20,000 nucleotides of DNA from Candidatus Rokuibacteriota bacterium (GCA_031406795.1 JANOHV010000005.1:51605-71604), one strand, 5' to 3'. Counted from the first letter of the stretch, positions 1,088 to 20,000 are shown. Notes: a model not told the origin generated them from the letters alone. Translations and numbers: made by a program.

Positions 1088-1617
1088 TCCGGCACCGCCG
1101 CGCGTCCGTCGGGCTCGATTCGGGAACGCAGGCCGTCGATTTCGGCCTGCAGCTCCCGGTTGCGGCACTCCAGATCGTGGAGGCGGCGCGCCATCGTCTC
1201 GTTGTCGGCCTCGAGCGACTGCACGCCGCGGCAGGCGCCGGTGAGCAGCCGCACAACGGCGCCGTTGAACTCCGCCTGCCGCGCCAGGGTCACCGCCGCC
1301 ACGGGGCGGGCGAGGCGGTGCAGCACGCGCTTGGCCGCGACAATGAGGGCACCGATCCCGCCGCGGTGCGAGCTGAATGGGTACGGCCCGAGCGGGTCCC
1401 ACGAGGAATGCACTCGGGCGAGATCGTCGGACGGTGCCGGCCCGAAGTCGGTCCGCTCGCGCGGCTCATGCTCGACGCGGCGCAGCGCCGCGAGATCGGC
1501 TCGCCCGTACTCCCCCCGGCGCAGCTTGCCGGCGATGCCGGCGCGCACGCGCTGCATGATGGCGTCCACGTCGGGAACCGGCGCGCTCCCGGCGCCATCC
1601 TTGAACGGCACGCTCAT
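1084..1617 (-). CDS. Hypothetical helical/coiled-coil protein; stand-alone homolog of the N-terminal domain of the methyltransferase at 4068..5351
   Basis: ATG at 1617 with GGAGGTG SD at 1627-1633 (ORF track starts at GTG 1650); motif SSHRGGIGALIVAAKRVLHRLARP...LARQAEFN followed by a heptad-like C-terminus; ATGA overlap with downstream GT. Confidence 0.85.
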   Translation of the reverse strand: MSVPFKDGAGSAPVPDVDAIMQRVRAGIAGKLRRGEYGRADLAALRRVEHEPRERTDFGPAPSDDLARVHSSWDPLGPYPFSSHRGGIGALIVAAKRVLHRLARPVAAVTLARQAEFNGAVVRLLTGACRGVQSLEADNETMARRLHDLECRNRELQAEIDGLRSRIEPDGRAAVPE

Positions 1618-1695
1618 GATCGCCTGCACCTCCCCCCGCCCCGTCGCCACGGCGAGTGTACCTCAGGAGCCGGCCGGAGAGGACGTGCCTTCACC

Positions 1696-4068
1696 TCAGC
1701 CCAGCTCCAGGCCGAGCCGCGTGCGGAGCACCTGGCGCAGACGCTCTTGCACGATGTCGGGCCGGAAGGCCTCCAGCCGCTCCCGGGACCGCTGCCCGAG
1801 CGCCGTGCGCAGGGAGACGTCGCCGAGCACGCGCGCCAGCAGCTCCGCGGTGGCGAACGGGTCGGGGTCCGCCAACAGGATTCCGCCGGAACCGAGGGTG
1901 CCGGGCACGCCGGCGGCGGCGCGGGCCACGATGGGCAGTCCGAAGTGCATGGCCTCCACCAGCGGCACGCAAAAGCCCTCGTGGGCGCTCAGGCACAGGT
2001 AGAGGTCGGCCGAACGGTAATATGCGCTGAGCGCGGCGTTGGACACGTGGCCGGTGAAGTACACCCCGGGGACGCCCAGTTCGCGCGTGAGCCTCCTGAC
2101 CCCCTGGGCATAGGGGTTGGTCTCCCCGCCCCCCACGACGAGCAGGCGCGCGAGTGGCAATGCGCGGGTCAGCCAGTGGTGCGTCTTGATCACGTCCTCG
2201 ATCCGCTTGTTCGGCACGAGACGGCCGACGTGCAACACCGTCGGGCGCTCGTCGCCGAAGCGTGCGAGCAGCCGGGGGTCCGGAGCGGTTTTGAGTACCG
2301 TCAGGTCCAGCAGGATCGGGACCTCCTCGACGGCGGCGCACCCGGCCTCGGTCAGTTCGGCGCAGTTGAAGGCGCTCACGCCCACGCCGAGTTCCACCGC
2401 TGCGGCCAACCCGGGGAGCTGCCGCCGCCCCAGGCGCGCCCGCTCGGCTCCGTCGGGGTAGACGCCATCGAGAAAGTGGGCCGGGGTGATGTTGTGATAG
2501 CGCAGCACCTTGCGCCCCGGCAACCCGGGGAGCGCATCGGCCAGCGGGTGACCGATCGAGAAATGAAAGATGAGCACGTCGTCCGCTCCGGCCTGCGGGC
2601 CGTATTCCTCGACGGGGCGGACCAGTTCGCGCAGGCGCGGCTGGTAGTGACAGGCGAAGATCTCCGAACGCACGCCCCAAGACCTGAGCGCTTTCTGGAT
2701 CGCCAGGACCTCGTTCCCGATGGCGTCGCCGGCGGCGAAATCCGGCAGCATCTGGTGCACCGCGGGCCCGTCGGGCGCGCCGGCCCCGGCGGCGGGGCTC
2801 CGGCTGGTCGACGGGGCCGATCCGCATCCGGGATCGGCGCCGGCGGCGGGGGCAGGTTCGGCGTCGATGCGCTCGATCAGCCGCAGGTAGCGCTCGGTCA
2901 CCACCGGCCAGGAGTAGTTGGACAGCACGTACTGCCGGCCCGCGGCGGCCAGTGCGGCGCGCAGGTCCGGGCGGGCGAGCAGGAGGTCCAGGCACTCGGC
3001 GAAATGCGGGTAGTCGGCGAAGTGCAGGCCGCCGCCGGAGGCCTCGACGTGCCCGCGGGTGACCGCGCAGCCCGTGCGGACCAGAGCGGGGGTGCCGGCG
3101 AGCCAGGCTTCCATGAGGACGATGGAGAAGCTCTCCATCAGCGAAGGCTGCACGAAGATGTCGGCCGCGGCGTAGGCGTCGTGTTTGTCCTGCGGAGCGA
3201 GGAAACCCAAGTCGATCACGCTCCGCTCCCCGCCCGCGGGGATGGCGACGGTGCCGGGACCGATCAGCGCCAGTTTGAGCCCGTCCGCGCCGCCGCGATC
3301 GGCCAGGTAGCGCAGGAAGTACCGCACCAGCAGCGGCGTGCCCTTGCCTTCTTCCTTGCGCCCGGCGTACAGCAGCAGCGGGCCGTCCAGGCCGTACGAG
3401 CGGCGGAAACGCCCGGCGTCGGCGCTCCAGTCGGTCGCGATCCCAACGCCGAGAACCAACGCTTCGCCCCGGGCGTGCCCGTACAGCATTGTGGCCAGGT
3501 CGCGCTCGGCGGGATCATTGAAGGCGAGCGCCCGCGCGCTCTCGAAAGCCCGACGGACCGCCTTTGTCCGGGCATAGCCCTCGTCGTGCAGGCACGGAAT
3601 CAGCACGCTCCTGGCCGGATGGACAAGAGCGCCGTACACGGAAGTGGCGAACAGGTAGGGAATGAAGAAGAACGGACCCAGTTCCGGGTGGCCGGCCAGG
3701 TGCCGGAGCAACGCCGGACTGTGCGCCATGTTGTCGAAGAAGTCGTGCTCCTCCTCATCGCTCAGGGGTTCGCCGGCCATCACCCGGGGCTGGAGCAGGC
3801 AGAACCGGCCGCGATTGCGCCTCGCGGTCGGGAATCGCACGATGCGCACCCCCGATTCAAGCGACTCGCCGACAGGGTAGCGATCGAGATCCCAGTCGGT
3901 GGCGGGCCCGCCGAGACAGGTGGTGAGGACCGTCACTTCGACGCCCGCGGCGGCCAGGTGCTGCGCGGTGGCTCGGGCCTCGGCCTCGGCTCCACCGGGG
4001 ATGTCCTCGCCGTACCAGGGCGTCACGAAGCAAGCGCGCAGGCGCCGGCCGGGCACTGCCGACGACAC
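1696..4068 (-). CDS. Two-domain GT4-GT4 glycosyltransferase (WbdA-like multi-GT4 architecture)
   Basis: 790 aa; two complete GT-B units (PWYGEDIPGGAE...YAGRKEEGKG...PSLMESFSIVLMEAW and HQMLPDFAAGDAIGNE...HVGRLVPNKRIE...SAHEGFCVPLVEAM) joined by a Pro/Ala/Gly-rich linker; GTG start overlaps upstream TAG by 1 nt. Confidence 0.92.
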   Translation of the reverse strand: MSSAVPGRRLRACFVTPWYGEDIPGGAEAEARATAQHLAAAGVEVTVLTTCLGGPATDWDLDRYPVGESLESGVRIVRFPTARRNRGRFCLLQPRVMAGEPLSDEEEHDFFDNMAHSPALLRHLAGHPELGPFFFIPYLFATSVYGALVHPARSVLIPCLHDEGYARTKAVRRAFESARALAFNDPAERDLATMLYGHARGEALVLGVGIATDWSADAGRFRRSYGLDGPLLLYAGRKEEGKGTPLLVRYFLRYLADRGGADGLKLALIGPGTVAIPAGGERSVIDLGFLAPQDKHDAYAAADIFVQPSLMESFSIVLMEAWLAGTPALVRTGCAVTRGHVEASGGGLHFADYPHFAECLDLLLARPDLRAALAAAGRQYVLSNYSWPVVTERYLRLIERIDAEPAPAAGADPGCGSAPSTSRSPAAGAGAPDGPAVHQMLPDFAAGDAIGNEVLAIQKALRSWGVRSEIFACHYQPRLRELVRPVEEYGPQAGADDVLIFHFSIGHPLADALPGLPGRKVLRYHNITPAHFLDGVYPDGAERARLGRRQLPGLAAAVELGVGVSAFNCAELTEAGCAAVEEVPILLDLTVLKTAPDPRLLARFGDERPTVLHVGRLVPNKRIEDVIKTHHWLTRALPLARLLVVGGGETNPYAQGVRRLTRELGVPGVYFTGHVSNAALSAYYRSADLYLCLSAHEGFCVPLVEAMHFGLPIVARAAAGVPGTLGSGGILLADPDPFATAELLARVLGDVSLRTALGQRSRERLEAFRPDIVQERLRQVLRTRLGLELG

Positions 4069-8684: not shown

Positions 8685-9317
8685 ATGGGAAAAGTTGAGG
8701 TGCGCGCCCCCCGGTTCCCGGGGTGCTCCGCGGCGATCCTTGCCGGCGGGAAGAGTACGCGCATGGGGGCCAACAAGGCCCTTCTGGAGGTCGGCGGCAG
8801 CGGCATGCTTGGCCGCACGGCGCGGTTGCTGCGCCCCCTGGTCGACGAACTCTTCCTCGTGGCCGACGACGCCGCCCCCTATGCCGGGCTGGGGCTGCCG
8901 GTCATACCCGACGTGCACCCCGGACGCGGTGCCGCCGGCGGGATCCACGCCGCGCTGCAGCACGCGGCGCACCCGCTGGTCCTGTGCGTCGCGTGCGACA
9001 TGCCGCACATCGCGCGCAGGGTGATCGAGCTGCTGCTGAACTCCGTTCGCCCCGATGACGACGCGCTGCTCCCCCGCATCGGCGGCCTGCCGGAGCCGCT
9101 GCTGGCCGTCTACGGCCGCAGCGCGCACGCGGGTTTCGAACGGGCGATCCGCGCCGGCCGCTACCGGGTGGTGGAAGCTCTCGAGGGCCTGCGCGTGCGT
9201 TACCTCGAAGAGCCGGAGTTGCGGGTCGCAGACGCCGCGCTGCGCAGCTTCGTCAACGTGAACACCCCGGGCGAACTCACCACCGCCCGCGTCGTTTCCA
9301 CGCAGGGGGAGCCGTGA
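8685..9317 (+). CDS. mobA: Molybdenum cofactor guanylyltransferase
   Basis: AAILAGGKSTRMGANKALL, VACDMP, PEPLLAVY, FVNVNTP motifs; start ATG 8685 (alternative 8670) after GAGGGAGG. Confidence 0.92.
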   Translation: MGKVEVRAPRFPGCSAAILAGGKSTRMGANKALLEVGGSGMLGRTARLLRPLVDELFLVADDAAPYAGLGLPVIPDVHPGRGAAGGIHAALQHAAHPLVLCVACDMPHIARRVIELLLNSVRPDDDALLPRIGGLPEPLLAVYGRSAHAGFERAIRAGRYRVVEALEGLRVRYLEEPELRVADAALRSFVNVNTPGELTTARVVSTQGEP

Positions 9318-10108
9318 CGGCGACGCACCCGCGGGCGCGCACACGCGCCGCCCGCCTCTGGCGGGACGGGGCTTTCAGCGCGGTCGAAGTCCCCGTCGCG
9401 CGGGAGATCCCCGTCAACCTCAGGCTCAACGGCCGGGAAATCATCACCCTGCTCGCGTCGGACGACGCCCTCGATTTTCTGGCCGCCGGGTTTCTCAAGG
9501 CGGAGGGTTTCGTCTCGCGCCGCGAGCAGATCGTCTCCATCAGGGTCGAACCCCGGGATGAGTCGGTGGATGTGGAGGCGACCGGGGTGGATACGCTCGC
9601 GGAGAAGCTGCTCGAGCGGCGGGCCGTAACCTCCGGTTGCGGCAAGGGAACGACGTTCACACACGCGATCGACGCGCTCCAGGCGCAGCCGGCGCCGGCG
9701 GGTCCGCAGGTGGACGCCGGCCAGCTCCGCCGGCTGATGCACGCCCTGTTGCGTGGTTCGGATCTCTACCGGGAATCCGGCGGCGTGCACAGCGCCGCAC
9801 TTGCCACCACCGACGCCATCGTGATCTTCCGCGATGACATCGGGAGACACAATGCCGTCGACAAGATCCACGGCGAGTGCTTCTTGCGGGATATCCCCGT
9901 CGGGGACAAGATCCTGCTCACCACCGGCCGCATCTCCTCCGAAATCCTCGTCAAGGCCGCCAAGCTCGGCGTGGCCGTCCTCGTGTCGCGCTCGAGCCCG
10001 ACCGACCTGGCACTGGAACTGGCCGGGCGCACCGGCATCACGGTGGTCGGCCAGGTCCGGGGCGGCGGCCTCACGATCTACACGGGGGAAGAGCGGGTGG
10101 GCGCATGA
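9314..10108 (+). CDS. fdhD: Formate dehydrogenase accessory sulfurtransferase
   Basis: TSGCGKG, GGVHSAAL, DDIGRHNAVDKIHG, TTGRISSEILVKAA, SRSSPTDLA; GTGA overlap with mobA. Confidence 0.95.
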   Translation: MTATHPRARTRAARLWRDGAFSAVEVPVAREIPVNLRLNGREIITLLASDDALDFLAAGFLKAEGFVSRREQIVSIRVEPRDESVDVEATGVDTLAEKLLERRAVTSGCGKGTTFTHAIDALQAQPAPAGPQVDAGQLRRLMHALLRGSDLYRESGGVHSAALATTDAIVIFRDDIGRHNAVDKIHGECFLRDIPVGDKILLTTGRISSEILVKAAKLGVAVLVSRSSPTDLALELAGRTGITVVGQVRGGGLTIYTGEERVGA

Positions 10109-10230
10109 ACATAGCGCGGGCGCTTCGCCCGCAAGGCTATGGAGGCTTCGGCCTGAGGACGCCGAAGTCTTACCATGCAGACAGGCACTGGGTCTGTTTC
10201 GCTGAAGAAGACAACTATTCTCGCGGATAA
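10105..10230 (+). CDS. Possible 41-aa bridge micro-ORF (MNIARALRPQGYGGFGLRTPKSYHADRHWVCFAEEDNYSRG)
   Basis: ATGA overlap with fdhD stop and TAATG overlap with ruvX start; no recognisable homology. Confidence 0.3.
   Translation: MNIARALRPQGYGGFGLRTPKSYHADRHWVCFAEEDNYSRG
10110..10197. repeat. Three consecutive hairpins (REP-like or terminator-like)
   Basis: CATAGC-GCGGGCG-CTT-CGCCCGC-AAG-GCTATG (10110-10141); AGGCTTCGGC/GCCGAAGTCT (10143-10170); GCAGAC/GTCTGT (10177-10197). Confidence 0.55.
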
Positions 10231-10697
10231 TGCAAATGTTGCCAAGAAATACTCTGCTGGCGCCGCCGGGGGGCCGCATCCTCGGGATCGACCCGGGCAC
10301 GAAGACCATCGGGCTGGCGGTGAGCGACGAGCTGTTCTTCGCGGCGCACGGCCTCCCGAGCATCCCGGCACGGCCGGCCGCGAAAGCGCTGGAGGCTATC
10401 AAAGCGCTGATTTCGGACTATACTGTGTACCAGATAGTGGTGGGGTTGCCGATGAACATGGACGGGAGCATCGGCCCCAGCGCGGAGGCAGCCCAGGGGT
10501 TTGCCCGCAGCCTCGAAGTTTTGCTCCCGGGAGGTGTGTGCATGATCGACGAACGTCTGACGACCGTGCAGGCCGAGCGCACGCTGATCGAGGCGGATGT
10601 CTCCCGGGCCAAGCGGCGCGGGCTGCGCGATCAGGTCGCGGCCGTGCTCATCCTGCAAAGTCACCTGGACAGCCGGGGCCATGCGTCTGGCGACTGA
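10230..10697 (+). CDS. ruvX: YqgF/RuvX family RNase H-fold nuclease (pre-16S rRNA processing)
   Basis: RILGIDPGTKTIGLAVSD, IVVGLPMNMDGS, IDERLTT, DQVAAVLILQ; start 10230 or 10236. Confidence 0.93.
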   Translation: MQMLPRNTLLAPPGGRILGIDPGTKTIGLAVSDELFFAAHGLPSIPARPAAKALEAIKALISDYTVYQIVVGLPMNMDGSIGPSAEAAQGFARSLEVLLPGGVCMIDERLTTVQAERTLIEADVSRAKRRGLRDQVAAVLILQSHLDSRGHASGD

Positions 10698-11730
10698 GTC
10701 CGGGCACGATGGCGCAGCCCGGCCGCACACCGGCGCGCCGCTGCTTTTCGCAACGCTGGGGAGCGGCCTGGCGCTGGCGCTGGCGCTGGCGCACCTGTTG
10801 CTGGTTGCGCCCGCCGGGACCGGTGACGGCCCGGCAGCGGTGCGCATCCCCGCCGGGGCGGACGTCCGGCAGATCGCACGCGCGCTGGCCGACGCCGGCG
10901 TCATCACCAGCCAGAAGACCTTCGTGCTGGCGGCCCGGCTGGCCGGGCTCGACCGGCGTCTGCATCCGGGCGATTACCAGCTCGACCCCGACATGAGTTT
11001 TCCGGCGCTGCTGCGCGCGCTCCGCGACGGGCGGGGCCGGACCGCCGCCGTGACCATTCCCGAGGGTTGGCGCCTCGAATCGATCGCCGAACGCCTCGCG
11101 AGTTCCGGCGTCTGCGAACGCGAGGCCTTCCTCGCGGCGGCCCGCGACCCGGCGCTGCTCGCCGAATTGTCGATCCCCGGCCCCAGCGCAGAGGGGTTCC
11201 TGTTCCCCGAGACGTACGCGCTGCGGCTCCCGAGTGCCCCGGCCGACGTGATCCGCGCCATGCACCGGCAGTTCGAGAAGATCTGGAACGAACTCGCCGC
11301 CAGCGCCCCGCCGGCGACGCTCTCGCCGCTGGCCGCGGTGACGCTCGCGAGCATCGTCGAGCGCGAGACCGCGGCGCCCGCCGAACGGCCCCTCGTGGCG
11401 GCCGTCTTCCTGAACCGGCTGCGGCTCGGGATGCCCTTGCAGGCCGACCCGACGGTCATCTACGGCCTGGAGGCGTTCGACGGCAACATCCGCAGCCGCG
11501 ACCTGGCATCGGCGAACCCCTACAACACGTACGTCATCCGCGGGCTCCCGCCGGGGCCGATCGCGAGCCCCGGACGCGCTTCGCTCGCCGCGGTGCTCAC
11601 CCCCGCCGCAGTGGACTATCTTTACTTCGTGGCCCGCAACGACGGCACGCACCAGTTCTCCCGCTCGCTGGCGGAGCACAACCGCGCCGTCCAGCGCTAC
11701 CAGCTCGCGGGGGGGAGGCGCCGCGGATGA
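10681..11730 (+). CDS. mltG: Endolytic transglycosylase MltG (YceG)
   Basis: N-terminal hydrophobic segment, TIPEGW, EGFLFPETY, LASIVERET, LQADPTVIYG, NPYNTY, GLPPGPIASPG, YLYFVA; typical ruvX-mltG synteny; ATG 10681 inferred. Confidence 0.93.
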   Translation: MRLATESGHDGAARPHTGAPLLFATLGSGLALALALAHLLLVAPAGTGDGPAAVRIPAGADVRQIARALADAGVITSQKTFVLAARLAGLDRRLHPGDYQLDPDMSFPALLRALRDGRGRTAAVTIPEGWRLESIAERLASSGVCEREAFLAAARDPALLAELSIPGPSAEGFLFPETYALRLPSAPADVIRAMHRQFEKIWNELAASAPPATLSPLAAVTLASIVERETAAPAERPLVAAVFLNRLRLGMPLQADPTVIYGLEAFDGNIRSRDLASANPYNTYVIRGLPPGPIASPGRASLAAVLTPAAVDYLYFVARNDGTHQFSRSLAEHNRAVQRYQLAGGRRRG

Positions 11731-12470
11731 CCAGGCGCCTGCGCTTCGCCGCCGCACTGCTGGTCTGCGGCCTCATCGCCGCGGCCGCCCCGGCCCGGGC
11801 CACTCTGTACTCGTTCGTCGATGAGAACGGCGTCACGCACTACACGAACGTGCCGAGCGACCCGCGGTTCCGCAAGGTTCCCGGAAGCGCCCCGCCGCCC
11901 GCAGGCCGCTCCGGCTCCGCCAGCCTGACCGCGGAGAAGTACGAAACCGAGATCGCCCGGTGCGCCGACGACCACGGGGTGGACAGCGCGTTGGTGAAAG
12001 CGGTCATCAAGGCCGAGTCCAACTACGACAACCGCGCCATCTCGCGCGCCGGGGCCCAGGGCCTGATGCAGCTGATGCCCGCGACCGCGAGGCTGCGCAA
12101 CGTCGACAATCCCTTCAACCCGGAGCAGAATATCGACGGCGGGGTGCGCCACCTCAAGCACCTGCTGAAGACCTTCAACGGCGACACCAAGCTCGCGCTG
12201 GCGGCCTACAATGCCGGCGAGAACGCGGTGCGCAAGTACAACAACAGCGTGCCCCCGTACCCGGAGACGAAGAACTACGTCTCCACGGTGCTCTCGCACT
12301 ACGGGCGCTACAGCGGGCTGGTTCCGGGTGCCGGGGCGGGCCCGATCGCCGCGGCGCCCCAGACCGCCCGGATCCAGGAGTTCGTGAACGCCGAGGGCAC
12401 CCGGGTCTTCACGAACGTCCCCTGGAAGTACCTGGAAGCGCCGGGCTGGCAGCGGGAGCAGTCCCGGTGA
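11727..12470 (+). CDS. SLT-family lytic transglycosylase with signal peptide and DUF4124-like motifs
   Basis: ATG 11727 (ATGA overlap); signal peptide ending APARA; VIKAESNY, GAQGLMQLMP, ALAAYNAG, PPYPETKNYV. Confidence 0.92.
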   Translation: MTRRLRFAAALLVCGLIAAAAPARATLYSFVDENGVTHYTNVPSDPRFRKVPGSAPPPAGRSGSASLTAEKYETEIARCADDHGVDSALVKAVIKAESNYDNRAISRAGAQGLMQLMPATARLRNVDNPFNPEQNIDGGVRHLKHLLKTFNGDTKLALAAYNAGENAVRKYNNSVPPYPETKNYVSTVLSHYGRYSGLVPGAGAGPIAAAPQTARIQEFVNAEGTRVFTNVPWKYLEAPGWQREQSR

Positions 12471-13054
12471 TCACCGCGAACAACATCACGCTGCTGCGCA
12501 TCGTCCTGATCCCGCTGCTGCTGGTTTTCATGGTGCCCGACCACGTCGTCGACCGCTGGATCGCGCTGGCGATCTTCCTGCTGGCCTCGGCGACGGACTG
12601 GCTCGACGGCTATGTCGCCCGCAGCCGCGGCCAGGTCACCAATCTCGGCAAGCTGCTCGACCCGGTGGCGGACAAGCTGCTCGTGACCGCAGCGCTGCTG
12701 CCGCTGGTGCGCAAAGAACTCGTGCCGGACTTCATGGCCGCGCTGCTGATCGGCCGCGAATTCCTTGTCAGCGGCCTGCGCAGCGTGGCTTCGGCCGAAG
12801 GCGTGGTCATCCCCGCCGGTCAGGTGGGCAAGTGGAAGATGGGAATGAGCATCACCGCGATCTCCTTCCTGATCGTCACGCCCCGCAATCCGGCCAATAC
12901 CTGGCCGCCGTGGGTCCCCGACGGCACCTACTTCCTGCTCGGCACGGTCTTTCTCTGGGTGACACTCGCGCTCTCGGTCGGGAGCGCCGCGCTGTACTTC
13001 TGGGAGTTCCGGCACTTCTACCGCCCGAGCAAGGAGCCCCCCGCCGCCCCATGA
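12467..13054 (+). CDS. pgsA: CDP-diacylglycerol--glycerol-3-phosphate 3-phosphatidyltransferase
   Basis: GTG 12467 (GTGA overlap); ANNITLLRIVLIP, TDWLDGYVAR...LGKLLDPVADK CDP-alcohol motif, REFLVSGLR, GKWK. Confidence 0.92.
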   Translation: MITANNITLLRIVLIPLLLVFMVPDHVVDRWIALAIFLLASATDWLDGYVARSRGQVTNLGKLLDPVADKLLVTAALLPLVRKELVPDFMAALLIGREFLVSGLRSVASAEGVVIPAGQVGKWKMGMSITAISFLIVTPRNPANTWPPWVPDGTYFLLGTVFLWVTLALSVGSAALYFWEFRHFYRPSKEPPAAP

Positions 13055-13068
13055 GACGGCCGCGTTGA
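13051..13068 (+). other. 5-codon bridge micro-ORF (MRRPR)
   Basis: ATG AGA CGG CCG CGT TGA; ATGA overlap with pgsA stop, TTGA overlap with the TTG start of the next GT. Confidence 0.35.
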
Positions 13069-14180
13069 GGATCGGCATCGACGCGCGGCTGGCGGCTGCT
13101 CCACGCACGGGAATCGGCAGCTACACTGCAAGTCTGGTCGCCGCGCTCGCACGCAGCGGCGGGGCCGACCAGTTCGTGCTCTTCTCCGACGAGCCGCTGC
13201 CCGGACTCCCGGGCGAGCGCTTCGCGAACGCCGTGCTGCCGGTGAAGCACCGCCTGCTCTGGACGTTCGGCGCGCTGCCGGGGGCCTGCCGGGCGCGCCG
13301 GCTCGACCTCTTCCACGGCACGACGAACTTCGAGGTGCCCGCCTTCGCCGGCTGCCCGCTCGTGGCCACGGTGCACGATCTGATCCCGCTGCGCTGCCCC
13401 GGGGCCGTCTCGCCGCAGTACCGGCTGCTCTTCCGCGCGCTGATCGGCCGCGCGCTGCGGGCCGCCCGCTACGTGATGACGGACGCCGAGTACACGCGGC
13501 GCGAGATCCTGGCCGGCTTCGCCGTGGCCCCGCACAAGGTGGTGACGGTGCCGCTGGCCGCCGGGCCGGCCTTCGCCCCCGACCCCGACCCGGAGGGGCG
13601 GCGGCGGGTGCGCGCGCGCCACGGGCTCGGGGAGCGCTATCTGCTCTTCGTCAGCGTCTTCGAGCCGCGCAAGAACATCCCGCTCCTCGTCGACGCCTTC
13701 GAGATCTTCCGGCGCGAGTACCCGCACGGGCCGGCGTTCCAGCTGGCGCTCGCCGGGGGCGCCGGCTGGCGCGGCGCGGAAATCGCCGAGGCGGTGCGCC
13801 GGCGCGGCCTCGACCCGGCGGTGAGACTGCTCGGCTACGTCCCCGACGAGGACCTGCCGTGGCTCTACCGCGGCGCCGAACTCGCGGTCGTCCCATCGCA
13901 GTACGAGGGCTTCGGCCTCTCCGCGCTCGAGGCGATGGCCTGCGGGACGCCGGTGCTCGCCGCCGACGCCACGACCCTGCCCGAAGTCGTCGGCGACGCC
14001 GGCGAACTGTTCGCGCCCGGCGACCCGGAGCTGCTCGCGCGCCGGATCGCCGAGATCACCGCCGCCCCGGTGTACCGCGCCGCGATGCGCGAGCGCGGGC
14101 TCGCCCGCGCCGCCGGCTTCTCCTGGGACCGCGTCGCGCGGGCGGTGCTCGACGTCTACCGGGAGGCCGTCCGCGCATGA
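13065..14180 (+). CDS. GT4 glycosyltransferase (MtfB/WbdB-like, probable mannosyltransferase)
   Basis: TTG start; MRIGIDAR...TGIGSY, TVHDLIPL, EPRKN, PSQYEGFGLSALEAMACGTPV, FSWD. Confidence 0.92.
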   Translation: MRIGIDARLAAAPRTGIGSYTASLVAALARSGGADQFVLFSDEPLPGLPGERFANAVLPVKHRLLWTFGALPGACRARRLDLFHGTTNFEVPAFAGCPLVATVHDLIPLRCPGAVSPQYRLLFRALIGRALRAARYVMTDAEYTRREILAGFAVAPHKVVTVPLAAGPAFAPDPDPEGRRRVRARHGLGERYLLFVSVFEPRKNIPLLVDAFEIFRREYPHGPAFQLALAGGAGWRGAEIAEAVRRRGLDPAVRLLGYVPDEDLPWLYRGAELAVVPSQYEGFGLSALEAMACGTPVLAADATTLPEVVGDAGELFAPGDPELLARRIAEITAAPVYRAAMRERGLARAAGFSWDRVARAVLDVYREAVRA

Positions 14181-14230
14181 GCGGGCACCAGGGCGCAGTG
14201 CGGTGCGGGCGCGCGAGGCGGACCCCGTGA
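14177..14230 (+). other. 17-codon bridge micro-ORF (MSGHQGAVRCGRARRTP)
   Basis: ATGA overlap with upstream GT stop (14177-14180), GTGA overlap with downstream GT start (14227-14230). Confidence 0.35.
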
Positions 14231-15327
14231 GGATCGGCATCGACGCCCGCAAGGCCGCCGACTACGGCATCGGCACGCACGTGCGCAACCTCGTGCACCG
14301 GCTGGTCCGCCTCGACCGTTCGGCGGAGTGGGTCCTCTTCCACCGCCCCGGCGACGAGGGGCTGCTCCCGGCCGGCGAACGGATCAGGCGGGTGCCGGAA
14401 AGCTCAGGCGGCTACTCGTTCGGCGAGTTGACGGCCCTTTCCGCGAAGGCGCGGGAGCTGCGCCTGGAGCTCTACCACGCGCCGCACTACGTCCTGCCCC
14501 TGCGCCTGCCCTGCCCGTCTGTCGTGACGATTCACGATGTCATCCACCTGACGGCGCCGGAATTCCGCGGACCGCGCCGCCTCTACGCCCGGCTGATGAT
14601 CGGCCGCGCGGTGCGTGCCGCGGCGCGGGTCATCACCGTCTCGCACGCCTCCGAGCGGGAAATCCTGCGCCAGTTCCCGAAACTGCACCCCCGGATCGAG
14701 GTCATCCCGAACGGCGTCGAGGAAATCTTCCACCCACGCCCGGCGGGCGAGGCCACGGCATTCGTCAAGGAGGCCTTCGGTATCGCGGGGCCGTACCTGC
14801 TCTTCGTCGGCAACCCCAAAGGCCACAAGAACCTCGGCCTGCTCCTCGAAGGGTTCGTCAAGCTCGCGCGGCGCTACCCCGCGCTGCACCTGCTTCTGGT
14901 CGGCGGCGACGAGCGACAGCGCCGCGCGCTGGCGAAGCGCACCCGCCAGCTCGGCATCGCCGGGCGCACGCGCCTTGCCGCGCCCGTGGACCAGGAGGCG
15001 CTCGCCCGGCTGTACGCCGCGGCGGCCACCTTCGTCTTCCCCTCGCGCCGCGAGGGCTTCGGTCTCCCGCCGCTGGAGGCCATGGCCTGCGGCACGCCGG
15101 TGGCCGCGTCGTCGAGCCCTTCCCTGCCCGAGGTCCTCGGGCCGGCCGCCGCCTACTTCTCCCCCGAGAGCTCCGATTCGCTCGTCGAGGCGATCTGCCG
15201 GGTCCTCGACGACTCCGCGCTGCGCGAACGGCTCGTGCACCTCGGCATCGAGCGCGCCCGGCTCTACTCGTGGGACGACGCGGCGCGGCGCACGCTCGCG
15301 CTCTATCGGGAGGTGCTGGCGTCGTGA
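14227..15327 (+). CDS. GT4 glycosyltransferase (MtfB/WbdB-like), paralog of 13065..14180
   Basis: GTG 14227 giving MRIGIDARKAADYGIGT; TIHDVIHL, VGNPKGHKN, PSRREGFGLPPLEAMACGTPV, YSWD. Confidence 0.92.
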   Translation: MRIGIDARKAADYGIGTHVRNLVHRLVRLDRSAEWVLFHRPGDEGLLPAGERIRRVPESSGGYSFGELTALSAKARELRLELYHAPHYVLPLRLPCPSVVTIHDVIHLTAPEFRGPRRLYARLMIGRAVRAAARVITVSHASEREILRQFPKLHPRIEVIPNGVEEIFHPRPAGEATAFVKEAFGIAGPYLLFVGNPKGHKNLGLLLEGFVKLARRYPALHLLLVGGDERQRRALAKRTRQLGIAGRTRLAAPVDQEALARLYAAAATFVFPSRREGFGLPPLEAMACGTPVAASSSPSLPEVLGPAAAYFSPESSDSLVEAICRVLDDSALRERLVHLGIERARLYSWDDAARRTLALYREVLAS

Positions 15328-16502
15328 GCCCGCGGGTGGCGCTCGTGCACGACTGGCTCACCGGGATGCGCGGCGGGGAGAAGTGCCTCGAGGCCTTGTG
15401 CGAGCTCTACCCCGCGGCGACGCTCTTCACCCTGTTTCACCGCCGCGGGCACCTCTCGCCAGCCATCGAGCGGATGCAGATCCGCACCTCCTGGCTGCAG
15501 CGCATCCCCGGCTGGCAGCGCAGCTACCGCCACCTGCTGCCCCTGTACCCGCGGGCGCTCGAGTCCTTCGACCTCGCGGGGTACGACCTCGTCATCTCGA
15601 GCAGCCACTGTGTCGCCAAGGGCGCGCGGGCGGCGCCCGGCGCGACCCACCTCTGCTACTGCCACACCCCGATGCGCTACGCCTGGGACCAGTACCGGCA
15701 CTACTTCGCTCCAGAGCGGCTCGCCTGGTGGAACCGCCGGGCGATCCCCGCGCTTATCGGCCGGATGCGTGCCTGGGATGTCGCCACCGCGGATCGGCCG
15801 CATCGCTACGCGGCCAACTCGCGGCACGTGGCCGCCCGGATCCGCGGCGCTTACGGCCGGGAAGCCGAGGTGATCTACCCGCCGGTCGACCTCGCCGGCC
15901 TGCGCCCCGGGGATGGCGCCGGCGGCTATTACCTGATGGTCAACGCGTTTGCACCGTACAAGCGCGTCGATCTCGCCGTCGAGGCCTTCAACCGCCTCGG
16001 TCGCGAACTGCTGGTCATCGGCACCGGCCAGGACGAGGCCCGCCTGCGCCGGTTGGCGAAACCGAACGTGCGCTTTCTCGGCTGGACCTCGCCCGAGCGG
16101 CTGCGCGAGGCCTACGCCGGGTGTCGCGCCTTCGTCTTCGCCGCCGAGGAAGACTTCGGCATCACCCCCGTGGAGGCCCAGGGCTGCGGCCGGCCCGTGA
16201 TCGCGCTCGGCAAGGGCGGTGCCCTCGAGACCGTGGTGCCGCACCCGGAGTACCCCGCCGCCGGCTCGCGGTCCGCCCCGGCAGCCGCGCCGACCGGGGT
16301 GCTCTACGCGGAGCAGACCACCGAGGACCTCGTCGCGGCGGTGCGCTTCTTCGAGACGCACGAGCGCGACTTCGACCCGGCGGCGATCCGCGCCTCGGTG
16401 CAGCGCTTCGCCAGGCCGCGCTATCTGGCCGAGTTCAAGGCGTTCGTGGAGCGCAATCTGCAGGCCGGGCGCCAGGCAGGCTCCGGCACTGCGAGGCCGT
16501 GA
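15324..16502 (+). CDS. GT4 glycosyltransferase (WbaZ-like)
   Basis: GTG 15324 (GTGA overlap); RVALVHDWLTGMRGGEKCL, SSSHCVAKG, CYCHTPMRYAWD, PYKRVDLA, EEDFGITPVEAQGCGRPVIA. Confidence 0.92.
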   Translation: MSPRVALVHDWLTGMRGGEKCLEALCELYPAATLFTLFHRRGHLSPAIERMQIRTSWLQRIPGWQRSYRHLLPLYPRALESFDLAGYDLVISSSHCVAKGARAAPGATHLCYCHTPMRYAWDQYRHYFAPERLAWWNRRAIPALIGRMRAWDVATADRPHRYAANSRHVAARIRGAYGREAEVIYPPVDLAGLRPGDGAGGYYLMVNAFAPYKRVDLAVEAFNRLGRELLVIGTGQDEARLRRLAKPNVRFLGWTSPERLREAYAGCRAFVFAAEEDFGITPVEAQGCGRPVIALGKGGALETVVPHPEYPAAGSRSAPAAAPTGVLYAEQTTEDLVAAVRFFETHERDFDPAAIRASVQRFARPRYLAEFKAFVERNLQAGRQAGSGTARP

Positions 16503-16679
16503 CCCGCAAACGCAAGCCCGAGGTGACGGCAATAGCCGCGTTCCTTAGCACGTTGAGCGACGGCGGGATGATGGGCGGCGGGCCGGGCGGCGGCTACTAA
16601 GCCTTATGCTCGTTGGAGCGTGCTGGACAGGGCCTCGGCGGGCGTTCACAATGCCGGAAACAGCTGAGGGAGGAGACCG

Positions 16680-17568: not shown

Positions 17569-19200
17569 ATGGCGGTAAGAATCGATCCGGAGAACAGCAC
17601 CCTGCTGCGCGCGGCGCCGCGACTCATGCAAATCCTGCGCGTTCTCGCCCGGCACAACTTCCTGGGCGCTTTGCGCGGCAAGCGGCATTGGCCGTCGCCG
17701 CGGGAGGTGCGTGAAACCTTCGAGGAGCTGGGGCTGGCCTTTCTCAAGTTCGGCCAGGTGCTCGCGATGCGGCGCGATCTGCTGCCGGACGCCTACATCG
17801 ACGAGTTGGAACAATTGCACGACCAACTGCCGGCACTGGGCTTTGACGCGGTGCGCGCGACGGTCGAAGCCGAGCTGGGATCCCCGTTGACGAAAGTGTT
17901 CGCATCGTTCAGTGAAGCGCCGCTGGCCGCCGCCACGATCGCCCAAGTGCACGAGGCGACCATGCATAACGGTCGCCACGTGGTCGTGAAAGTGCAGCGC
18001 CCCGGCCTTGAAGCGATGATTGCCACGGATATCGCGGCGCTGACCTACCTGGTGGCCCTGGGGGAAGGCCTCTTTCCTCGCCTGCGCGCGCTCGACCTCC
18101 CCGTGCTGGTGCGTGAGTTTGCCAACAGCCTGAACCGGGAAACCGATTTCGGACGCGAAGCGCGTTCCATAGTGCTCTTTCGCGCCGCGTTGGTGGATGT
18201 CCCCGACCTCTGGATTCCGGATGTCGTGGCGGAGTGTTCGAGCGGAGCCGTGCTCACGCTGGAGTTTTCAGCCGGCGAACGGGTGGACCTTTACGCCAGG
18301 CTGCACCCCGAAGCGATGCCGCGGGCGATCAAGACTCTGGTCAGGCTGATGCTGCAGACGATCTTCGAGGAGGGGTTGTTTCACGCCGACCCGCACCCGG
18401 GCAACGTCTTCGTTCTGCCCGACGGGCGGCTTTCCCTTCTCGATTTCGGGATGACGGGTGAGCTTGACGAGCCGATGCGCGAATCGCTGAAACTTCTGCT
18501 CGAAGCGGTCGTCAAAGGCGATGCGCGGGCCGCCACCGAGGCGTACCTCGAGATGACGACGGGGGGCGAGAAGGTCAACCGTGCAGCACTGCTGCTGGAC
18601 ATCAAGGCGGTGCTCTATGAAATCCACCGGTCCGACTTGACGGATGTTTCAATCGGGGACACCTTCGATTCGCTGTTGCGCGCCGGCAGCCGGCACGGGG
18701 TCCACAATCCCGGCGAGTTCTTCCTGCTGACGCGCGCCTTCGTCATCCTTGAGGCGATGATCCGCCAACTCGATCCGGACCATAATTACCTGGGGTCGTT
18801 CCGCGAGGAGATCTCGCGCCTGACCGCGCAGCACTTCTCGATGGAGCGGGTCAAGGAAAAAACAACCAAGCTGGCGCGCGAACTGGAGCGTTTGATCAGC
18901 GATGCGCCCGGCGACACGCGCCGCGTCCTTCGACATTTCGCCGAAGGCGACCTGGGCCGCCTGCAGACTCCGGCTGTGGAGGCCCTGGGCGGCCGCATCA
19001 GCCGAAACCTCGAGCGGCTCACCGGCGCGATCGCTTCCTCGGCGCTCGTAATCGCCGGCGCTCTGCTGGTGATTGCGCCGCTGGGCGGCTGGCATCACGT
19101 TCTCGGAGAGGCGATGGCGATCGCCGGTTTTCTCGGCACGCTCTTCGTCTGGGTCGGCATTTTGCGTCACGATCGCGGCCGTGGCCGCGGTCGACGATGA
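17569..19200 (+). CDS. UbiB/AarF/ABC1 atypical kinase family protein
   Basis: ELGLAFLKFGQVLA.RRDLLP, PLAAATIAQVH, VVVKVQRPG, FHADPHPGN, LLDFGM, two C-terminal hydrophobic helices; GGAGGAG SD. Confidence 0.92.
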   Translation: MAVRIDPENSTLLRAAPRLMQILRVLARHNFLGALRGKRHWPSPREVRETFEELGLAFLKFGQVLAMRRDLLPDAYIDELEQLHDQLPALGFDAVRATVEAELGSPLTKVFASFSEAPLAAATIAQVHEATMHNGRHVVVKVQRPGLEAMIATDIAALTYLVALGEGLFPRLRALDLPVLVREFANSLNRETDFGREARSIVLFRAALVDVPDLWIPDVVAECSSGAVLTLEFSAGERVDLYARLHPEAMPRAIKTLVRLMLQTIFEEGLFHADPHPGNVFVLPDGRLSLLDFGMTGELDEPMRESLKLLLEAVVKGDARAATEAYLEMTTGGEKVNRAALLLDIKAVLYEIHRSDLTDVSIGDTFDSLLRAGSRHGVHNPGEFFLLTRAFVILEAMIRQLDPDHNYLGSFREEISRLTAQHFSMERVKEKTTKLARELERLISDAPGDTRRVLRHFAEGDLGRLQTPAVEALGGRISRNLERLTGAIASSALVIAGALLVIAPLGGWHHVLGEAMAIAGFLGTLFVWVGILRHDRGRGRGRR

Positions 19201-19287
19201 CGGCGGAGGGTTGCAGGTGGCGGGCAGCGTCGTGCCGGCGGCCTTCAGCCGAAACCCCTGAGTCCCGAGAAGATCCGGAGGACCACC

Positions 19288-20000
19288 ATGTGCGCTCAAG
19301 CATTCGACCCGGCCGGTCTCCAGGCCGCCGACACTCCGGAGGAAAGCGGTCCCGAGGTCCGCAGCGAAGCCATTCTGCTCGAGGCGGGGGCGCTGCAGAA
19401 TGCGATTTTCAACAGCGCGAACTTTTCGAGCATCGCCACCGACGCGAAGGGGGTCATCCAGATCTTCAACGTCGGCGCTGAACGCATGCTTGGCTACAAA
19501 GCCGCCGAAGTGCTGAACAAGATCACGCCGGCCGACATCTCCGACCCGCAGGAGGTGATAGCGCGCGCCAAGGAATTGAGCCTCGAACTCGGGACCCCGA
19601 TCACCCCGGGTTTCGAGGCCCTGGTGTTCAAGGCCTCGCGCGGCATCGAGGACATCTACGAGCTGACCTACATCCGCAAGGACGGCAGCCGCTTCCCGGC
19701 GGTGGTGTCCGTTACGGCACTGCGCGACGCGCAGGACGCCATCATCGGCTATCTGCTGATCGGCACCGACAACACCGCGCGCAAGCAGATCGAGGCAGAG
19801 CAGAAGCAGCTCGGTCAGCGTCTGCGCGACCATCAGTTCTACACCCGCTCCCTTTTCGAATCCAACATCGACGCGATCATGACCACCGATCCGTCCGGCA
19901 TCATCACCGATGTCAATAAACAGATGGAGGTGCTCACCGACTGCACACGCGATGAACTTATCGGCGCGCCGTTCAAGAACTACTTCACCGATCCGGATCG
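19288..20000 (+). CDS. Multi-PAS domain sensor protein, 3' end outside the window (missing from the ORF track)
   Basis: GGAGG SD at 19277-19281, ATG 19288; AIFNSANFSSIATDAKGVIQIFNVGAERMLGY...YIRKDGSRFPAVVSVTALRD...IGTDNTARK, second PAS FESNIDAIMTTDPSGIITDVNKQME; output domain not visible. Confidence 0.9.
   Translation, partial: MCAQAFDPAGLQAADTPEESGPEVRSEAILLEAGALQNAIFNSANFSSIATDAKGVIQIFNVGAERMLGYKAAEVLNKITPADISDPQEVIARAKELSLELGTPITPGFEALVFKASRGIEDIYELTYIRKDGSRFPAVVSVTALRDAQDAIIGYLLIGTDNTARKQIEAEQKQLGQRLRDHQFYTRSLFESNIDAIMTTDPSGIITDVNKQMEVLTDCTRDELIGAPFKNYFTDPD

Follow-up and report, generated by a model that had tools for sequence, protein, structure and literature searches.

This study concerns a plus-strand operon of nine genes in a metagenome-assembled genome of a Candidatus Rokuibacteriota bacterium (G000; 4.1 Mb, 67% GC, 278 contigs), contained in a stretch of 20,000 nucleotides (nt) that was analyzed as a whole (G000:C191:51605-71604, hereafter the window). 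Three pairs of neighboring genes in this operon, namely, fdhD/ruvX, pgsA/GT1, and GT1/GT2 (GT = glycosyltransferase), are separated by real gaps of 121, 10, and 46 nt, all 1 mod 3, and each gap is spanned exactly by a micro open reading frame (micro-ORF) that overlaps the upstream gene's stop codon and the downstream gene's start codon. Comparison with relatives showed that all three gaps derive from direct 4-nt stop/start overlaps, and that the orphan ATGs opening the micro-ORFs are, as judged from the aligned junctions, ancestral start codons. It is considered somewhat probable that the micro-ORFs are leftovers of these overlaps, kept in phase by selection and relaying ribosomes between genes. 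Translational coupling is thought to need overlaps or gaps of a few bases, and the tolerance of operons to insertion or gene loss at their junctions is a practical question, to which the scar series at pgsA/GT1 and a repeat family with filled and empty sites suggest phase-preserving mini-ORFs as an answer. If such upkeep held across the lineage, relay ORFs would be a general means by which tightly coupled operons are repaired, and would let mobile DNA enter operons without harm.

The relatives compared were three sister species of the same genus (G001, G002, and G003), a class-level relative (G005), and nine close metagenome contigs among 80 loci (L034-L042), with the junctions of interest present in L034, L035, L037, L038, and L042. 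The gene order of the operon is kept in the three sister species and in all nine contigs. G001 and G005 were used for presence/absence and gene order and not for phase arguments, as both are ridden with frameshifts. In G001, frameshifts occur in five of the nine operon genes; several lie inside single conserved operon genes in both assemblies (L031 of G001 and L115 of G005), which have few contigs and low completeness. Both look like error-prone long-read assemblies, making phase arguments from either unreliable.

Ancestral overlaps at the three gapped junctions

The junction between pgsA (12467-13054) and the GT4 glycosyltransferase gene GT1 (13065-14180) forms a natural series in nine genomes and contigs, running from a full gene through scars of five lengths to a clean overlap. 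In G002, a gene for a 392-aa GT4 glycosyltransferase, here referred to as GT0 (Pfam Glycos_transf_1), reaches from the pgsA stop (ATGA) to the GT1 start (TTGA). GT0 is taken as ancestral because the order pgsA-GT0-GT1 is also found in the class-level relative G005. At the other end of the series, pgsA and GT1 overlap directly in an ATGA in G003 and L038. The scars comprise MRRPR (5 codons) in both G000 and L042, MRRLAGAAT (9 codons) in L037, MSRLSFVAAAEKR (13 codons) in L034, a remnant of 30 codons in L035, which has lost GT1 as well, and a 46-codon frame in G001 that carries an extra repeat insertion. They retain nested prefixes of the N-terminus of the deleted gene (MRRLAFVV), and the ATGA at the pgsA end is kept in all nine relatives and contigs examined.

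In G000, the MRRPR scar is micro-ORF 2 (13051-13068), which leads from an ATGA on the pgsA stop (last codon CCA followed by TGA) to a TTGA on the GT1 start. Aligned with the full gene, micro-ORF 2 is demonstrably the first ~10 nt of GT0 joined to the GT0 stop, the net loss being 1161 nt, a multiple of three. The sequence of this junction was confirmed by an X2 contig covering 12637-13427. GT1 has a TTG start, and AGG is its second codon in all eight copies compared while the adjacent codons vary synonymously. In L037 (2110-2140), compared with the G002 GT0 (L032), CTCGC occurs in the same codon phase near the GT0 start and near the GT0 end, and the 23 nt after it match the GT0 tail in length; the 9-codon scar looks like the product of a microhomology deletion.

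Such scars might also be neutral relics, i.e., by-products of indels at former overlaps that are in phase by chance and by the selection of cases, with the downstream genes starting alone. This is the main rival and is judged unlikely, though far from negligible. Any indel that hits a former overlap will of itself leave a start codon on the upstream stop. As 45% of second codons have A as their first base, the next start is often an NTGA too, and chance alone puts a third of these events in phase. Against this stands the pgsA junction itself, where all six gapped variants, of five lengths (5, 5, 9, 13, 30, and 46 codons), are stop-free from the ATGA to the NTGA and in phase; frame conservation in relatives, which had been proposed as a check when the micro-ORFs were first noticed, was found at this junction.

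At the first gap, fdhD (9314-10108) and ruvX overlap directly in all three sister species, in an ATGA in G001 and a GTGA in G002 and G003. G000 alone among these four carries ~145 nt inserted immediately after the fdhD/ruvX ATGA, at a site that is empty in the sisters. The insert (10111-10255, minus strand) is one copy of a hairpin repeat interspersed in the genome, and lies reversed with respect to the operon. Its limits were taken from a contig of an RNA library of another study that joins 10110 to 10256 with two other letters between; this joint would weakly suggest an empty site, its shorter side being only 26 letters long. The insert is lower in GC and strongly structured (-62.3 kcal/mol, z = -4.5 against shuffled controls), and holds a 21-nt GC hairpin preceded by GTAG in reverse orientation. 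Micro-ORF 1 (10105-10230, 41 aa) reads the antisense strand of the repeat, from an ATGA on the fdhD stop (last codon GCA followed by TGA) to a TAATG on the first possible ruvX start. The end of the inserted repeat now supplies the first ~9 codons of ruvX (10230-10697), the start codon lying inside the insert. The ATG on the fdhD stop is, by comparison with the relatives, which start ruvX on that ATGA or GTGA, the ancestral ruvX start. The new ruvX start has no Shine-Dalgarno motif, in agreement with the earlier impression that none was clear there. The whole of gap 1 is spanned by none of the listed X2 or X3 DNA contigs because these break within the repeat, whereas contigs of other samples from the source study span the other two junctions.

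At the third gap, GT1 and GT2 (GT4 glycosyltransferase, 14227-15327) overlap in a GTGA in G002, G003, and L037, where GT2 reads MSVRIG. In G000 and L042, the first seven bases of the old GT2 start are kept, followed along a 54-nt frame by a new start, so that ~47 nt now lie between GT1 and GT2 in G000. The frame is micro-ORF 3 (14177-14230, 17 aa), which runs from an ATGA on the GT1 stop (last codon GCA followed by TGA) to a GTGA on the new GTG AGG start of GT2, and which, on alignment with the overlapping relatives, starts on the ancestral GT2 start codon. A GGGAGG lies 13 nt upstream of ATG 14177, inside the conserved YREA-coding end of GT1, and an X3 contig covering 13928-14400 confirmed the sequence. 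The frame is equally long in G000 and L042, yet only 36 of its 54 nt and 8 of its 17 residues match between them, as against 84% and 91% identity for the flanking proteins.

Degenerate repeat copies were considered as a source of micro-ORF 3 and of the L035 scar and were rejected by nhmmer and a 3'-module profile over the window and 14 related loci; the nhmmer search matched only gap 1 of the window and the pgsA gap of G001, with everything else at or below 6.4 bits. At the 5' end of GT2 in G000 (14227-14244), L042, and L035, the sequence behind the start codon's first base is, for 17 bases, that of GT1 (xTG AGG ATC GGC ATC GAC), while GT2 in G001, G002, G003, and L037 begins GTGAGCGT(G/A)CGC, a pattern suggestive of recombination or gene conversion where the two paralogs begin.

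The sequence-only reading had raised the idea that the linkers are scars of in-frame gene deletions. Of the three, this holds only for 13051-13068 as the GT0 remnant; 10105-10230 runs through a reversed mobile repeat, and 14177-14230 is a 54-nt scar shared with L042.

The double overlaps would be partly an artefact if the gaps were smaller or absent, owing to wrongly set starts (GTG 14203 for GT2, 10236 for ruvX). The gene caller used for G000, a simple home-made program based on codon usage (3508 genes, 84% coding), places seven of the nine operon starts as homology suggests and prefers 14203 and 10236 for the other two; ruvX, moreover, has three in-frame start candidates within 10 nt (ATG 10230, ATG 10236, and TTG 10239). 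On the other hand, GT1 and GT2 both begin with MRIGIDA at the proposed starts, the start codon is at the same position in every relative with GTG, TTG, and ATG interchanging, and a start at 14203 would add eight residues absent from all relatives. Even with ruvX starting at 10236, micro-ORF 1 ends only 8 nt upstream. Mis-set starts are regarded as improbable.

The remaining junctions of the run (8685-16502), whose gene identities were all confirmed by NCBIfam matches, are direct overlaps. The stop of mobA (molybdenum cofactor guanylyltransferase, 8685-9317) overlaps the fdhD start in GTGA 9314-9317, ruvX and mltG (10681-11730) share 17 nt (10681-10697), mltG meets a lytic transglycosylase gene (slt-like, 11727-12470) in ATGA 11727-11730, the latter meets pgsA in GTGA 12467-12470, and GT2 meets the last gene, the glycosyltransferase-like GT3 (15324-16502), in GTGA 15324-15327. 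A base-by-base coordinate check agrees with the sequence-only reading on these five overlaps and on the three doubly overlapping micro-ORFs, which leave no gap of the operon unspanned. The start of every downstream gene or micro-ORF thus overlaps an upstream stop, through four 4-nt gene/gene overlaps, the 17-nt one, and six micro-ORF overlaps.

Across the window, 3 of 10 same-strand gaps are bridged, all of them in this operon; those without a bridge are five minus-strand gaps and the two that follow GT3. The GT3 stop (GTGA) opens a 33-codon ORF that ends 82 nt short of the next start. The counter-example named earlier, the ATGA at 19197, was correct: it opens a 94-codon ORF that overruns the next start. 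This frame (19197-19481) begins on the stop of an ABC1-kinase gene, has no Pfam match, and passes the start of a gene for a PAS-domain protein. A search of the window against Rfam gave nothing at gathering thresholds, with only a chance-level long non-coding RNA match in gap 1 (E = 0.16), and no intrinsic-terminator-like site was found in any of the three gaps. Measured against shuffled controls, structure is reduced in gap 3 (z = +2.2), and gap 2 does not stand out.

An interspersed repeat at stop/start overlaps

The repeat inserted between fdhD and ruvX belongs to a family of which a profile search found 23 copies of the 3' module in G000, and a pattern search allowing two mismatches found 9, 3, and 3 matches in G001, G002, and G003, respectively. 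Long copies of ~143 nt begin with ATGAA, hold a sigma-70-like -35/-10 pair, and end with CTATGA. Co-directional called genes flank 20 of the 23 copies and convergent genes flank 1; the other 2 are at contig edges. By the home-made calls, six forward copies and one reverse copy (C209) bridge their gaps, to which the window copy is added should ruvX start at 10230; no bridge is formed by 12 co-directional copies. The six forward copies between co-directional genes form bridges from ATGA (once TTGA) to ATGA over gaps of 139, 139, 67, 79, 79, and 133 nt, and their peptides all end in LAGEAPA, a reading of the hairpin in a single frame.

For forward copies abutting a start, the three good assemblies give spacings between the 5' ATG and the hairpin of 120, 120, 48, 54, 60, 60, 78, 60, 63, 57, and 66 nt; all 11 distances, of eight distinct values, are multiples of three. 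Among the non-forward copies with the 5' motif (113, 119, and 120 nt), two of three are not. This difference argues against neutral relics as described above. G001 has three further forward copies in phase (120, 120, and 72 nt).

In comparisons of filled and empty sites, five of seven insertions lie on former ATGA or GTGA overlaps, with an ATGA on both sides when filled, and two lie in short spacers. The five are the fdhD/ruvX insertion, the one in the pgsA gap of G001 (compared with L034), and those on C126, C195, and C146, where the nearest relatives show just a GTGA or ATGA overlap. The copies in short spacers are those on C209 and at C191:1193; on C209, the 144-nt insertion preserved a pre-existing TTGA...GTGA frame. 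In G001, near local position 1500 of contig C18 (L126), two micro-ORFs are apparently chained through GTGA from the upstream stop to the downstream start, first a 5-codon frame and then the repeat's own frame, started by GTG.

The common ending of the bridge peptides could be taken as a sign that the micro-ORFs encode functional small peptides, as could the fact that the frames are kept open. However, LAGEAPA is simply what the hairpin encodes in a single frame, and reverse copies conserve that DNA as well. At the pgsA junction, the peptides range from 5 to 46 residues with unrelated middles, so that neither length nor sequence is conserved; micro-ORF 3 is far less conserved than the 84-91% identical proteins beside it, and micro-ORF 1 has no NCBIfam match. 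Functional peptides are considered very improbable.

The sigma-70-like pair of the forward copies points at the downstream gene, whereas that of the window copy (TTGGCA-17-GAGAAT, minus strand, 10245-10217) points antisense into fdhD. By analogy, the repeat may be a mobile promoter, like the Neisseria repeat REP2 as described in PMC3184786.

Bridging and phase across the genome

The home-made calls for G000 give 2484 co-directional gene pairs, 401 with an NTGA overlap and 1580 with a gap of 1-300 nt. Bridges starting with ATG, GTG, or TTG were found in 88 of these gaps, versus 50.9 +/- 5.9 expected, and ATG-started bridges in 32, versus 14.4 +/- 3.4 expected, an enrichment of about 1.7- to 2.2-fold. 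In the null model, upstream ends, interiors, and downstream ends were permuted within gap-length classes, and none of 1000 permutations reached either observed count. The genome-wide count that the sequence-only reading had called for, here set against permuted controls, lies above chance, and the enrichment over this stratified null speaks against neutral relics.

Phase was tested separately because overlap relics alone would associate the contexts of both ends. Where a gap has both a start codon on the upstream stop and a stop codon on the downstream start, 87 of 189 are 1 mod 3, compared with 517 of 1391 others (p = 0.008), an excess that speaks against neutral relics. Such relics do find support in composition, since at ~70% GC short frames rarely hold stops: the frame is stop-free in 324 of the 517 unrelated 1 mod 3 gaps. 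Of the 87, 71 are stop-free, which counts in favor of upkeep. ATGA is about twice as frequent at stops before co-directional gaps (110 of 1580) as at convergent gene ends (28 of 820; p = 2.9e-4). Over all co-directional gaps, the numbers with remainders 1/0/2 are 232/183/158 for 1-30 nt, 201/165/141 for 31-100 nt, and 171/160/169 for 101-300 nt; the excess of 1 mod 3 is confined to gaps of 1-100 nt, and bridges are the only explanation at hand.

The A-ending last codons and the AGG second codons at the bridged junctions had been called unusual at this GC content. They are rare in gene bodies but common at gene ends genome-wide: GCA makes up 4.7% of alanine codons in gene bodies and 15.4% at last codons, CCA 2.4% and 17.8%, and AGG makes up 4.8% of arginine codons in gene bodies and 15.2% at second codons. 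This enrichment of rare codons at gene ends (3-7 times) fits a pervasive NTGA architecture.

A proposed relay by micro-ORFs and known systems

On this evidence, successive genes of the ancestral operon were linked through 4-nt NTGA stop/start overlaps, and three of these junctions were broken open in G000, by the landing of the reversed ~145-nt repeat on the fdhD/ruvX ATGA, by the deletion of GT0 down to 18 nt, and by the appearance of ~47 nt between GT1 and GT2. At each break, the old start codon on the upstream stop survived, and at the end of GT1 the GGGAGG as well. A ribosome that finishes the upstream gene may start again on the orphan ATG, read 5, 17, or 41 codons, stop on the start codon of the next gene, and there re-initiate once more. 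An orphan frame out of phase would take ribosomes past the next start in the wrong frame and would be removed by selection, such that only open frames stopping exactly on the next start (TAATG, TTGA, or GTGA) would leave downstream expression intact. The micro-ORFs would then act as relays or as damage control, with peptides that have no function of their own.

In the native gene pairs described in PMC10666635, termination-reinitiation coupling is down by 40-80% at +14 nt and nearly gone at 22-38 nt. Given this decay, a gap of 46 or 121 nt should uncouple the genes unless bridged, and the 10-nt gap might not need its micro-ORF. Whether the micro-ORFs are kept for a relay, as the sequence-only reading proposed, divides into two parts. 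The upkeep of phase is supported indirectly by the pgsA scars, the lengths of the forward repeat copies, and the genome-wide enrichment; the relay itself is a putative function, and bridges are not significantly commoner in overlap chains.

Several observations weigh against micro-ORFs maintained by selection as relays, and some of them are what neutral relics would predict. Most gaps have no bridge (1492 of 1580, ~94%), and bridging is not significantly commoner next to overlaps, occurring in 54 of 1033, 26 of 466, and 8 of 81 gaps with 0, 1, and 2 flanking overlaps, respectively (p = 0.42). Genes without a Shine-Dalgarno-like motif are common, about a third of those well scored (1025 of 2875, by a home-made classification); a missing motif is thus no proof of dependence on coupling, and downstream genes may start independently. 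The ATG-started bridge rate is 2% per gap, which makes three in one operon rare, but the number of windows scanned was very large and a three-out-of-three case is expected somewhere; the comparative evidence therefore weighs more than this rarity. The scar variants and repeat copies are, in turn, related by descent, and arguments of the form (1/3)^n overstate their independence. Two G001 forward copies are out of phase (121 and 56 nt), which is ambiguous given the frameshifts of that assembly. Reverse repeat copies share no common frame and five of them do not bridge; the window copy is itself reversed, its own built-in frame is not used, and the bridging of gap 1 could be luck. Gap 2, at 10 nt, is short enough for direct re-initiation without a micro-ORF, distances up to +10 nt being treated as predictive of coupling in PMC10666635. 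The genome-wide counts rest on a caller that mis-sets two of the nine starts of this very operon. Lastly, none of the RNA-library contigs over the region (X4 and X20), which come from relatives or cover only fragments, spans any gap, so that they are uninformative on co-transcription or translation.

Two parts of the relay arrangement have precedents. Termination-reinitiation at NTGA/TGATG overlaps and short ORFs that deliver ribosomes are described in PMC10666635, PMC12548453, and PMC6728339, with the same stop/start arrangement as here; the candidate delivering ORFs of this study differ in lying inside an operon, in overlapping both neighbors, and in being traceable to ancestral starts. A close likeness is to the interspersed repetitive units of mycobacteria (MIRUs; Supply et al. 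1997, as summarized in PMC12548453 and PMC3184786). The 2025 review PMC12548453 describes short ORFs that solely deliver ribosomes, and MIRUs as mobile repeats that insert at start codons with an ORF coupled at -4 nt; in the earlier review PMC3184786, MIRU ORFs overlap both neighbors and filled sites show tetranucleotide direct repeats. Both families are short (40-150 bp), GC-rich, interspersed, and located inside operons between co-directional genes, the ends of their ORFs overlap the neighbors' stop and start at -4 nt, and what a filled site has beyond an empty one is the element and a repeated tetranucleotide (ATGA in the present family). By layout and published description, as distinct from sequence homology, the repeat would work like a MIRU, its forward copies having ATGA at both ends and an open frame between. 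In contrast to MIRUs, the host is an uncultured high-GC bacterium, every copy seen is a single unit rather than part of a variable-number tandem array, the repeat has a GTAG-hairpin module and a sigma-70-like motif and occurs in both orientations, and in the reversed window copy the bridge is not in the element's own frame.

It is proposed tentatively, at a lower level of confidence than the upkeep of phase in this operon, that the lineage keeps any remnant of a broken overlap, be it part of a gene or a mobile repeat, as an in-phase, ribosome-passing mini-ORF, in effect a non-polar scar of natural origin, and that a MIRU-like family, apparently unrelated to the mycobacterial one, has independently evolved to land on NTGA overlaps with a stop, a start, and a relay frame of its own. 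Confirmation would carry the MIRU concept past the mycobacteria, make orphan ATGA starts worth inspecting in annotation, and offer synthetic biology natural minimal relay cassettes of as few as five codons.

Engineered in-frame deletions of the Keio type retain the native start and stop of the deleted gene, which avoids polar effects on the next gene. Micro-ORF 2 likewise joins GT0's own start codon and own stop codon in a single frame, but it is natural, far shorter (5 codons), and one of several independent-looking variants at a single junction. Papers related to the engineered scars are PMC8547470 and bioRxiv 10.1101/2020.12.30.424838. Word searches of the open-access literature returned no description of natural in-frame deletion scars acting as relays.

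The repeat family also resembles repetitive extragenic palindromic (REP) sequences, including their doublets (REPINs), which are mobilized by REP-associated tyrosine transposases (RAYTs). An alignment of 16 copies shows a GTAG box, which we take to be a REP hallmark, followed by a GC-rich palindrome, and the interspersed intergenic copies are transcribed with operons; the corresponding module of the window copy lies at 10110-10156. Unlike in REP/REPIN-RAYT systems, no doublet structure was seen, and the sole Y1-transposase-like gene (the only PF01797 match in G000) is flanked by a different 48-nt repeat. No cognate RAYT gene flanked by the window repeat was found in G000, and mobilization of the repeat by this Y1 transposase was rejected for lack of a link. 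The PF01797 ORF lies on G000:C70:14713-17967 (L116; local positions 1354-1851, minus strand) and encodes 165 aa, among them an HVH motif. Tandem arrays of the 48-nt hairpin repeat lie on either side of it, as would be expected for a RAYT accompanied by REPs of its own.

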